From: a virus | Direction: 5' to 3' (one strand) | IMG/VR virus record: IMGVR_UViG_3300022902_000006 | Length of the DNA stretch: 64,000 nt | Shown: piece by piece, positions 54,315-59,473 of the stretch | Numbering within the stretch: position 1 is the stretch's first letter | Layout of the letters: the number at the start of each line of letters is the position of its first letter | The notes under the pieces: model-generated | Told to the model about the DNA's origin: nothing | Seen by the model: only the letters and a program-made list of their open reading frames with translations | The model's database searches: none | Program-made: the position numbers and the translations under genes

Positions 54315-54773
54315 TCAGATGATTTCGTCGTCAGGGTGTCGTAGTGGGGGTTCAACGATGTGTACGGCGTGGGCGCAGTCTTGGGTGTCAACACCCAGGT
54401 TGCCACGTAGGAACATGGCGTAGCGCTCGTCAGGACCAACGGCTGTGACGTGTCGCCCTCGGCGGATCATCTGGAGGGGGTGCACCGTTTTGTAGTGGAC
54501 AGCGCAGCCTTTGGTGACTGTGTGGATGCCTCGGGTGTTCTTCATATAAACGTGGATTGAAACCCCTTCCGGGATTGGTGCATGTTGTCCGTGGCGCATC
54601 TTAGTGCAGACGTACACATGTTCGTAGATGTTGAAGAGGAGGCAGAAGCAACGGTTACAATAGCGCACACGGTACATGCGCTGCACCTTGGAGGGGAACT
54701 TCTGTTGCTGGAGGCAGGGGATTGCCAGAGCACAGTGTCCACAGGCTTTGTCGGTGGTGAGGATGGTTCTCAT
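54315..54773 (-). CDS. Cys-rich paralogue 11 (divergent)
   Basis: CGHCALAIPC...CNRC...C. Confidence 0.7.
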   Translation of the reverse strand: MRTILTTDKACGHCALAIPCLQQQKFPSKVQRMYRVRYCNRCFCLLFNIYEHVYVCTKMRHGQHAPIPEGVSIHVYMKNTRGIHTVTKGCAVHYKTVHPLQMIRRGRHVTAVGPDERYAMFLRGNLGVDTQDCAHAVHIVEPPLRHPDDEII

Positions 54774-55216
54774 GGCTTCTTTATGGGGAGGGAGAAGGCC
54801 CCTGATTGCAACGCGTGGAGCGTCTCATCGAGGAACTCTTCGTCCATGTCATGGATTGGTGTTTGGAAGTCGTACCCCCCTTTGTGCAGGATACAACTGG
54901 GGCACACTCCCGCGTTTATGTAGATGCCGAGGACAGGGTCTTTGATGCGCGTCTCAGGGGTGCCTGTGGCGTTCGCCGCAGCGACGTAGTTTGGCACACA
55001 AGAGGAGTCGGTCATGCTGCGCCGCTCACACCTGAACATCACCACCTTCTTGACTCGGGGTATGTGGGTGCGAGACTGCATTGATTCAGGTACGGGGTAG
55101 GTTTCTTTAAGGACGAAGCGTGTACACCTCACGCACAGGAAGGTTTCACTGTTGTTCATCTTGAACAACGCCCCGGAGAGGCAAGCGACGGCGAAGGGAC
55201 AGCGCTTACATTTCAT
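54770..55216 (-). CDS. Cys-rich paralogue 10
   Basis: MKCKRCPFAVAC...LCVRC...CERR...DP...CPSC. Confidence 0.85.
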   Translation of the reverse strand: MKCKRCPFAVACLSGALFKMNNSETFLCVRCTRFVLKETYPVPESMQSRTHIPRVKKVVMFRCERRSMTDSSCVPNYVAAANATGTPETRIKDPVLGIYINAGVCPSCILHKGGYDFQTPIHDMDEEFLDETLHALQSGAFSLPIKKP

Positions 55217-55590
55217 CCGATCTTCTTCCGGTGATCCTGCGCAGCGGCTTGTTGTAGTTCCTCCGACACACACGTGGAACACTTGCCCAACGGGATGTCG
55301 GTACCTGTCATTGGGTCCGTGACGTACGCAATAGTGTTTCTCGATGTAACAGCCTCGGACACTTGTTCGTGCACAAAATTGGACTCTGGGGGGCTGCGTT
55401 TCTCACAAAGGAATTCCACTATACGTTTGGGTTGTGGGATGACACGCACACACACTGTTTCCGCCACAGGGGGATTCTCAATGATGATGAGGCGGGAACA
55501 TTTAGCGCACAGACACACGTAGCTGCTGTTTATTTTGAACAGCGCCCCGGACATGCACGCAACCACGAAAGGACAGCGCTTACACTTCAT
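55213..55590 (-). CDS. Cys-rich paralogue 9
   Basis: MKCKRCPFVVAC...LCAKC...CEKR...DP...CSTC. Confidence 0.85.
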   Translation of the reverse strand: MKCKRCPFVVACMSGALFKINSSYVCLCAKCSRLIIIENPPVAETVCVRVIPQPKRIVEFLCEKRSPPESNFVHEQVSEAVTSRNTIAYVTDPMTGTDIPLGKCSTCVSEELQQAAAQDHRKKIG

Positions 55591-56041
55591 CGAGGTGCTC
55601 CACGGCGTATACCTCCTTGTCCCCAATGGCTTGGGGCACGGCGCCTTTGCATTCCTCACATTTGGTAATCTTGATGTGGCTCGTACCTCCCGGCGACATC
55701 GGGTCTATGGGCTCACCCAAGGCTCCTGATGATAATTTATCCAGGTTGAAGACGTCTACCTGGGGGATGTCGTAGATATCCAGGAACGCACGGTCCAGCT
55801 TCTCACAGTGGAGGTATCGACGCGCGGCAACGGCTACTTCTGTTTGCCATACACGCAGAGGGTTGTCGGGTGGTGACCCGGGAGCAGGGTCCACGTCGAT
55901 GAGTTCGTAGGATGTGACCTGCAACCGCGCGCACTCACGACAAAGGAGGATTGTGATGCTGCTCCCTATCACTGCGCCCACCTCTGATTGGAGCTTTCCC
56001 GCCATGCACAGCAGCACATAAGGACACCGGCTACACTTCAC
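55580..56041 (-). CDS. Cys-rich paralogue 8
   Basis: (V)KCSRCPYVLLC...LCREC...CEK...DP...CEEC. Confidence 0.85.
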   Translation of the reverse strand: MKCSRCPYVLLCMAGKLQSEVGAVIGSSITILLCRECARLQVTSYELIDVDPAPGSPPDNPLRVWQTEVAVAARRYLHCEKLDRAFLDIYDIPQVDVFNLDKLSSGALGEPIDPMSPGGTSHIKITKCEECKGAVPQAIGDKEVYAVEHLDEV

Positions 56042-57624: not shown

Positions 57625-58028
57625 AACAAAGACCCTCCTGGCCCTGCTCCTGGACCGAAAATGAGGTTGTGAACCTCGTTGATGAGTTCCGTCGCGCACT
57701 CTTCACACAGGGTTACGAGGAAGTCTTTCCCTAGAACAACAGGAACGTGACTGTACGAAAAGCGTTGCACCTCCTCCCGCTTCCTTTTCACCACGCGTCG
57801 GATGGCATTTTCGAAGGCCCCCTTGAGTTTGTTGGCAGAGTAGTTTTCACTTTGTACGCAGATAGGTAGGAGGTCCCACACCTCGTGGATCTCAGCTTGC
57901 CCCACTCGCAATACTTGCACCTTGTTACATGTTGGACACACCACGATCCCGCGCACTGGTTCCTTTCCCGCCAGACATGCTAGAGCGTGGGGGCATTTGG
58001 CACAGGCTGATGTTATTTCATGAATCAT
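57621..58028 (-). CDS. Cys-rich paralogue 4
   Basis: CAKCPHALAC...VCPTC...C...CEEC. Confidence 0.8.
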   Translation of the reverse strand: MIHEITSACAKCPHALACLAGKEPVRGIVVCPTCNKVQVLRVGQAEIHEVWDLLPICVQSENYSANKLKGAFENAIRRVVKRKREEVQRFSYSHVPVVLGKDFLVTLCEECATELINEVHNLIFGPGAGPGGSLF

Positions 58029-58483
58029 GATCCATAGCTACCGGGCCGAGACACCACCCCCACGTTCTCGTGGATGGTGCTAGGGTCGTAGCCTCGCAGA
58101 GCATCAGGGTGGTCGTCCACATCAATGTACAAGACGCGTGTGCTCCGGTTGAAGTATTTGCTCTGTCCGAAGATAGCATCACAGAGGCCACACGTTTCGT
58201 CCTCGTTCCGCTGCATCGCTGCCTTACGTACGAGCTTATACCCTGTGATGTAGGGGCGATCGGCAGGTTCCATGCTTTTGACCGGAGGGCACTCGAAGAT
58301 CCAAACGATGTCGTGTAACACCAATATCTCAGGTACCCCATTTTTCCCTGGGATACGGATGTGCCTGTCTCCACGTGGGGCAAGTACGGCGGTACGCTCA
58401 CACCCCTCGCACAGATGCATAAACCCAGGTGGCTCCCCATTCTGCATGCACGGGATAGCGAAAGGGCATCTACGACAATCCAC
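58025..58483 (-). CDS. Cys-rich paralogue 3
   Basis: GTG start; CRRCPFAIPC...LCEGC...C...CGLC. Confidence 0.8.
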   Translation of the reverse strand: MDCRRCPFAIPCMQNGEPPGFMHLCEGCERTAVLAPRGDRHIRIPGKNGVPEILVLHDIVWIFECPPVKSMEPADRPYITGYKLVRKAAMQRNEDETCGLCDAIFGQSKYFNRSTRVLYIDVDDHPDALRGYDPSTIHENVGVVSRPGSYGS

Positions 58484-58895
58484 TATTATCCCCCAGGAAT
58501 AAGCGAAGACCCCAAACGTGGTCACGGTCTTCAAGGTCTCCGCAGTAAACACGAGGACGGTCTGCCGCACCGTCGCGCTTGAGATCGTTGATACAGTTGG
58601 GGCACTTGATGACGTGACACCCACCCATACGATGCCCGGCGATAACCTCGGGGTGTACGCGCACGAAAGGAGCCACGGGCATTCCGTTTTTGCTGGGGTC
58701 AGGGAACACGACTTCCTTGACCTTGGGACACACGAAGCTCCACCACATGACTTGCGGACAACGGTTTCGGTACGTTTCAGTATTGACAGGACGGCGCACC
58801 CACACCCGAAGACACTCAGGGCACACCTTCGCGGCGTTCGGCGGGCGACCATTTGCCAAGCACCACACCGCGAAGGGGCATTTTGCACATATCAC
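58470..58895 (-). CDS. Cys-rich paralogue 2
   Basis: MICAKCPFAVWC...VCPEC...C...CPNC. Confidence 0.8.
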   Translation of the reverse strand: MICAKCPFAVWCLANGRPPNAAKVCPECLRVWVRRPVNTETYRNRCPQVMWWSFVCPKVKEVVFPDPSKNGMPVAPFVRVHPEVIAGHRMGGCHVIKCPNCINDLKRDGAADRPRVYCGDLEDRDHVWGLRLFLGDNSGLS

Positions 58896-59473
58896 TGAGT
58901 AGTGAGCTTGATCATGCCCGGCGAGCGATGTGGCGTCGCATCCAGGTCAATCCAGTTTTCGTCAATGTACCGGAGGGTGGCGTGGTTGGGAGGCTTCGGA
59001 AGGGCGGGATTGTGCATGTACTCACACTCACAACATACTGAAACAGTGAGCGCCGGTTGCGTACGCTGCGGGCGGGGGTCTTCGACGTGGTGCGTGACGT
59101 TCGTGTACTGCTGCCAGTACCAGTTCAGCTTGTAGATCTGGAAGTCCTCGGGAGACTCATCTTCGTGCCGCTTGCGTGGGAGAGTAACCGCCTGCATACC
59201 GAGATCAATGCTGTCCACCGAGACACCTGTGTCGCGCCGTGTTCCTGGCAGCTTGCACGCGTCCACGACATCGCGCAGCAGTGGGCGCTCCTCACAGGTG
59301 AAGAGGAAGGTCACGTACTTATCTTCGGGGGCAGTCCCCTGCGCCAGCACGAGGGTGGGCTTCTTCTTCATGTTGATGAAGAACCGCCCACAGTGCAGGC
59401 ACAACCCGTAGGTCCCAGCGATGAAGCTACCCCCGTAGCAGACCATCATGAAAGGGCACTTGCGACATTTCAT
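58892..59473 (-). CDS. Cys-rich paralogue 1
   Basis: MKCRKCPFMMVC...LCLHC...CEER...DP...CCEC. Confidence 0.85.
   Translation of the reverse strand: MKCRKCPFMMVCYGGSFIAGTYGLCLHCGRFFINMKKKPTLVLAQGTAPEDKYVTFLFTCEERPLLRDVVDACKLPGTRRDTGVSVDSIDLGMQAVTLPRKRHEDESPEDFQIYKLNWYWQQYTNVTHHVEDPRPQRTQPALTVSVCCECEYMHNPALPKPPNHATLRYIDENWIDLDATPHRSPGMIKLTTQ

Follow-up and report, generated by a model that had tools for sequence, protein, structure and literature searches.

Phage anti-CRISPR (acr) loci, such as those with an AcrVA2/FinQ neighbour, consist of small, fast-evolving genes without recognizable homologues, clustered in variable islands that receive mobile-element insertions. In eukaryotic viruses, the poxvirus gene 'accordions' and the multigene families (MGF) of African swine fever virus (ASFV), which have known roles in immune evasion, are tandem arrays of variable copy number, in which neighbours are most alike and a conserved scaffold carries variable surfaces. 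We analyzed a phage locus that resembles both. It lies in a stretch of 64,000 nucleotides (nt), hereafter the window, which spans bases 107239-171238 of the 180,179-bp IMG/VR phage record IMGVR_UViG_3300022902_000006, rated complete by CheckV, and it comprises eleven tandem genes for cysteine-rich paralogues directly upstream of a cas12m gene. The eleven proteins belong to one family, whose tandem arrays recur in related phages at a fixed position with an unstable copy number, and which is not linked to Cas12m beyond the lineage of this phage.

The likeness to acr loci extends to an AcrVA2-labelled gene in the same island, whereas no PADLOC or Pfam relation was found for the family, and we know of no acr locus in which one Cys-rich family has 11 to at least 15 paralogues. 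In contrast to the poxvirus and ASFV families, which belong to eukaryotic viruses, the phage copies appear ancient rather than recently amplified. The paralogues also recall the RPB9/TFIIS-type zinc ribbons in their CxxC...CPxCG-type knuckles and in having eight cysteines in two groups; however, they gave no match to that fold, and their CPx4C, F-x-C-E-x-R and DP motifs are particular to the family. Type V-M CRISPR-Cas is represented by the adjoining gene, by its matches a true Cas12m, together with a repeat array, but the Cys-rich family is not a conserved component of that system and co-occurs with it only in this phage lineage. What is new here is a family and a fold without recognizable relatives; what is familiar is a tandemly expanded accessory family in a phage conflict island.

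The eleven-gene array and its protein family

Positions 54315-59473 of the minus strand hold 11 consecutive genes, W01-W11, each encoding 125-193 amino acids (aa):

58892-59473, minus strand: W01, family member, 193 aa (gene model, MAFFT alignment, family profile)
58470-58895, minus strand: W02, family member, 141 aa; its GTG start overlaps the W01 stop (GTGA) (gene model, alignment, profile)
58025-58483, minus strand: W03, family member, 152 aa; GTG start, 14-nt overlap with W02 (gene model, alignment, profile)
57621-58028, minus strand: W04, family member, 135 aa (gene model, alignment, profile)
57064-57624, minus strand: W05, family member, 186 aa, TTG start; nearest paralogue W06 (37% identity) (gene model, alignment, BLASTP)
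56582-57067, minus strand: W06, family member, 161 aa (gene model, alignment, BLASTP)
56031-56585, minus strand: W07, family member, 184 aa (gene model, alignment, profile)
55580-56041, minus strand: W08, family member, 153 aa, GTG start; most acidic copy, isoelectric point (pI) 4.9 (gene model, alignment)
55213-55590, minus strand: W09, family member, 125 aa; nearest paralogue W10 (44% identity) (gene model, BLASTP)
54770-55216, minus strand: W10, family member, 148 aa; copy chosen for structure modelling (gene model)
54315-54773, minus strand: W11, divergent terminal member, 152 aa (gene model, alignment, BLASTP)

At seven of the ten junctions the genes overlap by 4 nt (ATGA, GTGA or TTGA) and at the other three by 11-14 nt, and the same coupling extends upstream of W01 through genes of 128, 86 and 427 aa (59470-61393). 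The GTG start assigned to W03 retains the N-terminal motif; public gene calls begin at an internal ATG instead. At the other end of the array, the W11 stop at 54315 and the cas12m ATG at 54295 leave a gap of 19 nt, which contains a GAGGAG Shine-Dalgarno-like site. A promoter and terminator scan returned counts at shuffle level and was uninformative. The fetched public copies of this phage's locus were 100% identical over the parts they cover.

In a MAFFT alignment of W01-W11, residues C3, C6, C12, C25, C28, C60, P133 and C147 are invariant and C150 is present in 10 of the 11 proteins. The exception is W11, in which the last Cys is replaced by Ala, CxxCP is changed to CxxCA, and 12 His residues occur. 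The distances between the conserved cysteines differ widely (C12 to CxxC, 12-21 residues; CxxC to C60, 13-41; C60 to P, 11-72; P to the last CxxC, 10-33), and for this reason the hypervariable inserts are considered real; the C-terminal tails vary likewise, from 16 to 82 residues. The initial annotation, made from the letters of the window, had described eleven tandem 125-193-aa Cys-rich genes upstream of cas12, coupled by ATGA, TTGA or short overlaps and ending 19 nt before the cas start, with a common eight-Cys pattern and hypervariable inserts. The gene models and the alignment confirm this description.

The homology of the eleven copies is far above chance: the profile built from W01-W11 recovers every genomic copy with E values from 5e-19 to 6e-43, and 23 of the 55 paralogue pairs have BLASTP matches at E<1e-3. 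Identities to W01 range from 15 to 30% and those among all paralogues from 15 to 44%. The best within-genome matches are between neighbours (W09-W10, 44%; W05-W06, 37%; W02-W03, 35%), which points to tandem duplication. A blastn comparison of the array with the whole genome found a single DNA-level similarity among the copies, shared by the 5' ends of W09 and W10 (83% over 69 nt), and no template/variable repeat pair of a diversity-generating retroelement. Judged by their sequences, the copies are old and not recent amplifications. Their net charge ranges from -7 to +9, with a median pI of 8.1.

Outside this genome, a profile search of 1.84 billion metagenome cluster representatives (50%-identity clusters) returned 111 proteins at E<1e-3, about 100 of which come from outside this phage, with the consensus MKCxxCPFxLxCxxGRL...LCPxCGRL...FxCExR...DP...CxxC...DLD. 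Since many of these relatives are compact (90-110 aa), the core domain is estimated at about 70 residues; one larger protein (at least 565 aa) carries a long insertion between the Cys modules. No family-level match was obtained in Pfam-A (8 of the 11 members scanned), PHROGs (3 of 11), NCBIfam or PADLOC (all 11 in each), so that the family, which the initial annotation did not recognize, has no model in any library tried. An ESM Atlas feature search gave only unnamed clusters with scores of at most 0.85, and a word-indexed search with the family alignment returned almost exclusively the window's own proteins. A degenerate DNA pattern was searched in one genome per species for 185,579 prokaryote species and gave 10 matches, of which nine were negative with the family hidden Markov model (HMM) at a cut of E<=0.01 and one was borderline (L034, E 2e-3). 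The same type of pattern search in JGI metagenome contigs gave 24 matches; 11 were HMM-positive at E<=0.01, eight of these with several members in tandem. In IMG/VR, the degenerate DNA pattern for MKCxxCPFxLxC had no match. These searches indicate that the family is apparently undescribed and phage-restricted.

To characterize the fold, we modelled W10 with AlphaFold2 from a 72-sequence alignment, obtaining a confident α/β model (predicted local distance difference test, pLDDT, 85; predicted template modelling score, pTM, 0.76). Foldseek found nothing for this model at E<=0.001 in PDB and BFVD, VIA-align found no credible relative among 48,161 PDB representatives (best Z 2.6), and ESM Atlas comparisons reached a TM of at most 0.42, with TerY-C and MBL rows too weak for use. 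The model of a compact 96-aa member (pLDDT 67) likewise had no fold relative (best Z 2.3). The only PDB sequences matched by the family profile were RPB9-type double zinc ribbons, at a borderline E of 0.0048-0.7, and these matches are probably driven by the cysteines. The CxxC(P) and (L)CPxCG(R) pairs resemble rubredoxin or zinc-ribbon knuckles, and the arrangement of the eight cysteines, CxxC(P)x4C ... CxxC ... C ... CxxC, suggests two Zn(Cys)4 sites with rubredoxin-like knuckles; two or three metal sites per protein are plausible. The paralogues are probably cytoplasmic and zinc-stabilized.

The N-terminal Cys module (CxxCPx4C...CxxC) also occurs inside larger proteins, at positions 171702-172535 of the genome (minus strand, just outside the window), at L029:3365-3817 in a related contig, and in one gene of the window:

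47135-48163, minus strand: P0001, 342 aa, carrying one copy of the N-terminal Cys module (about residues 100-137) joined to unrelated sequence (family profile)

Since these larger proteins of the phage clade are otherwise unrelated, the module behaves as a mobile building block.

Arrays in related phages and their linkage to Cas12m

Alignment of the related loci identified a gene that marks the position of the array:

62744-63535, minus strand: marker gene 'TRAEAICA...GLRKWD', 263 aa, bounding the variable island on its upstream side in every relative (alignment of relatives)

A single-protein search with the marker found no match in IMG/VR, whereas a search with a four-sequence alignment did find relatives there; neither the marker nor W10 had a tblastn match in 50,697 GenBank phage records. 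Tandem family arrays of 3 to at least 15 copies occur in syntenic relatives. The 10.9-kb contig L007 is colinear with positions 180,061 to 170,477 of the genome at 30-60% amino-acid identity, and its homologue of the marker is followed directly by three family members. After the marker gene, L029 has 15 HMM-positive frames across 7.4 kb, L024 has six members in an array that reaches the contig end, L044 has seven members, and L045/L050 has 16 matches over 19 kb; counts from six-frame HMM matches are approximate, particularly in the GC-rich genome G002. The array begins directly after the marker in L007, L029, L024 and L044 and within 2.6 kb of it, after one 694-aa gene, in L045. Colinearity with this genome continues into genes further upstream in L007, L029 and L045. 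In addition, contigs of about 1 kb carry three family members each. Two of these loci lie in larger records, L044 in G001 (87 kb, estimated 49% complete) and L045/L050 in G002 (130 kb, estimated 71% complete).

In this phage the array is followed by a Cas12m module and a thymidylate synthase gene:

52529-54295, minus strand: Cas12m gene, 588 aa, 19 nt downstream of W11 (PDB and Pfam matches)
51198-52524, minus strand: CRISPR-like array, about 28 units, 28-nt repeat with a covarying 6-bp stem, spacers mostly 17-23 nt, unusually short (repeat analysis)
49759-50463, minus strand: ThyX (Thy1) thymidylate synthase, just downstream of the CRISPR-like array (annotation)

Along almost its entire length, the 588-aa protein matches PDB chain 23vw_A ("CRISPR-associated DNA-binding protein Cas12m") at E 4e-75; it also matches further Cas12m structures at about 1e-20 and contains the Pfam Cas12f1-like TNB domain; by these matches the gene is a Cas12m. 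The initial annotation had proposed an HMM search and a check of genomic linkage to Cas12m-like genes. Both were run, and no linkage was found outside this phage lineage. The Cas12m protein was not found anywhere in G001 or G002. Conversely, no family member was present in the Cas12m-bearing IMG/VR records G003 (35% identity) and G004 (28-34%), and around Cas12m relatives of 52%, 46% and 45% identity there was no family match even at E<=1. In all, the Cas12m relatives of 28-52% identity comprise eight loci in six distinct contexts, which are other phage-like backgrounds, and none has a family member. The family and Cas12m thus do not co-occur across lineages, with arrays lacking Cas12m in G001 and G002 and Cas12m lacking the family in G003, G004 and L052-L055. 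Among the related-phage records examined, homologous arrays were found mostly without cas12, the outcome that the initial annotation had named, along with a lack of binding to or modulation of the effector, as telling against its idea of a joint system.

The 3' flank of the array provides a further comparison. In L044 the terminal member, of the W11 type and the best match of W11 outside its own genome, is followed by small genes, a gene resembling CCA-adding enzymes, and a convergent gene for a 789-aa homologue of the product of window positions 44949-47189. The corresponding interval of the window holds cas12m, the CRISPR-like array, ThyX and a few small genes. This synteny suggests that Cas12m and its array were inserted at the 3' boundary of the paralogue array, and the Cas12m module therefore looks like a later neighbour of the paralogues, not a conserved partner.

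The variable island and the phage-borne Cas12m

Three further genes head the chain of overlapped genes upstream of W01:

60110-61393, minus strand: 427-aa gene heading the overlapped gene chain, labelled PF26125 AcrVA2-like (precomputed Pfam match on public copies)
59470-60113, minus strand: two small genes (86 and 128 aa) between the 427-aa gene and W01, with ATGA-type overlaps (gene models; no family assigned)

A PHROG of unknown function matches residues 373-412 of the 427-aa protein, the C-terminal 40 residues in which an H-x-R motif lies. AcrVA2 triggers the destruction of Cas12a mRNA, and its homologues are widespread on mobile elements including megaphages, with a host that usually lacks Cas12a (bioRxiv 10.1101/2022.11.29.518452). 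In this phage, a gene labelled as anti-Cas12a-type (label not reproduced) and the phage's own Cas12m belong to a single gene chain. The relatives lack the six genes that separate the marker gene from W01, so the whole stretch behaves as a variable accessory island. Two of its adjacent genes, at 61430-61834 and 61838-62302 (minus strand), share a 42-residue C-terminal block ending in ...WS (43% identity, E 2e-10), giving the island a second small pair of paralogues. In L029, a complete TnpB (OrfB_IS605 and TNB, E 4e-26 and 1e-20) lies inside the array at 8890-9918 (plus strand), with a 72-aa open reading frame at 8610-8828. A TnpB inside that array and a Cas12m at the edge of the array studied here suggest that the island accepts TnpB-family elements repeatedly.

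The spacers of the CRISPR-like array had no match in the phage's own genome at up to 2 mismatches, and the first 17 nt of each spacer had none in 398 kb of related loci at up to 1 mismatch. In the public annotation a DUF3310 gene follows ThyX. Two public contigs of the same phage, L059 and L060, are independent assemblies that end 20-27 nt into cas12m and are 100% identical before that point; the breaks could hint at a polymorphic junction or, equally, at an assembly artefact, and L059 ends in a short inverted copy. The Cas12m relatives in L052-L055, G003 and G004 occur in several phage-like contexts, one of them a contig of about 47 kb that carries integrase and baseplate genes, and on this basis the Cas12m subclade seems to reside largely in phages. 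In a 2026 preprint, the Cas12m of a myxophage is described as the first to be found in a phage (10.64898/2026.09.14.751636).

Functional interpretation and rival explanations

We lean towards the interpretation that the paralogues are an undescribed phage family forming a birth-and-death repertoire of binders that act independently of Cas12m, and consider it somewhat probable as a whole. Onto a compact core of about 70 residues with eight cysteines would be grafted loops and C-terminal tails that differ greatly in length and charge. The family would reside in the variable island downstream of the 'TRAEAICA' gene in uncultured phages of one clade, about 130-180 kb in size, where tandem duplication and loss would have produced 3 to at least 15 copies per genome. 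The same island would hold the AcrVA2-like-labelled gene and would have received the Cas12m-plus-array module at its 3' end; since that insertion, cas12m would be read from the same gene chain. Each paralogue would bind a different host or rival-element macromolecule through its variable surface, with no part played by Cas12m. Binding in host takeover or counter-defence is the most likely function to judge from context and evolutionary pattern, these targets being favoured because of the island's content, and a panel of anti-defence binders, one of the alternatives offered by the initial annotation, is the most plausible form of it.

Several observations weigh against this interpretation. The counter-defence role is drawn from context and evolutionary pattern, with no homology pointing to function, and the AcrVA2-like label of the 427-aa gene is a precomputed annotation that was not reproduced locally. 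The slightly basic median pI agrees no less well with nucleic-acid binding than with protein mimicry. With only 19 nt between W11 and the cas gene, the paralogues are likely to be co-expressed with Cas12m in this phage. One ENA sample contains both a Cas12m of 83% identity and a W06 orthologue, and another sample, of nearby accession, contains a pair of W07-W08 orthologues, all on short contigs; probably only a very close sister lineage keeps both Cas12m and the family. In addition, G001 and G002 are incomplete, so that a Cas12m could lie elsewhere in them, and the contigs of several relatives end inside the array, so that their visible sequence stops before the 3' flank.

The initial annotation had favoured a protein library working with Cas12m, in which the paralogues are adaptors or exchangeable effector subunits paired with a library of guides. 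The genomic records speak against this idea, which we now regard as very improbable: arrays occur without Cas12m in G001, G002, L029, L007 and L024, and Cas12m relatives of 28-52% identity occur without the family, at L005, L006 and L052-L055 among other loci. Moreover, W11, the paralogue that adjoins cas12m, is best matched externally in L044, a record without Cas12m; the solved Cas12m effectors in the PDB list were deposited as single proteins; and no spacer match was seen to the family genes or to the loci of the relatives. A complex prediction for Cas12m with W11 scored 0.00 with an uncertain partner fold, which gives no verdict and counts neither way. On the side of the adaptor idea, W11 and cas12m lie 19 nt apart on one strand in one gene chain, no terminator-like site was seen between them (in the uninformative scan), and the close sister lineage seems to keep both elements. 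The idea thus keeps only adjacency and probable co-transcription in one lineage.

The basic average pI and the zinc-ribbon-like knuckles make another role the main rival, in which the paralogues would be zinc-ribbon regulators that bind nucleic acid or RNA polymerase, serving as phage transcription or translation factors that reprogram expression. The CxxC knuckle pairs and the RPB9-type profile matches (the best at E 0.0048) agree with such a role, but those matches are borderline and probably cysteine-driven, neither structure model matched an RPB9 or zinc-ribbon fold, and 11 to at least 15 regulators of one family with unstable copy number would be unusual for core regulation; we consider it unlikely. 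Still less probable, in our judgement, are redox or iron-sulfur, structural or otherwise non-binding proteins whose multiplicity reflects neutral gene amplification. Eight cysteines could hold an Fe-S cluster instead of zinc, but their spacing in the family is not a classical ferredoxin motif, and the paralogues appear old, with 15-44% amino-acid identity and no DNA similarity beyond the 69-nt stretch. That all copies are intact and that distant relatives have also maintained arrays speaks for selection on diversity and against neutral amplification.

The repertoire of independent binders may also be read in a more specific form, which we put forward as possible but doubtful: a zinc-scaffold repertoire in which each paralogue neutralizes a different host or rival factor and which, together with the AcrVA2-labelled gene and the captured Cas12m array, makes up a combined offence-and-defence island. 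If true, the locus would be the equivalent, in a prokaryotic virus, of the multigene families with which large eukaryotic viruses evade immunity, and its fold would have no known relative.

For the reading of cas loci in phages, adjacency to and co-transcription with a cas gene are not in themselves evidence of an accessory role in CRISPR, and at this locus comparative genomics points to the cas module as the newcomer. The data also indicate that the whole Cas12m subclade is, as it seems, largely phage-borne. To our knowledge, arrays of 11 to at least 15 copies would rank among the larger single-family expansions in phages. If the paralogues are binders of host or rival-element factors, they would constitute a natural library of small metal-stabilized binding scaffolds and a source of new anti-defence activities.

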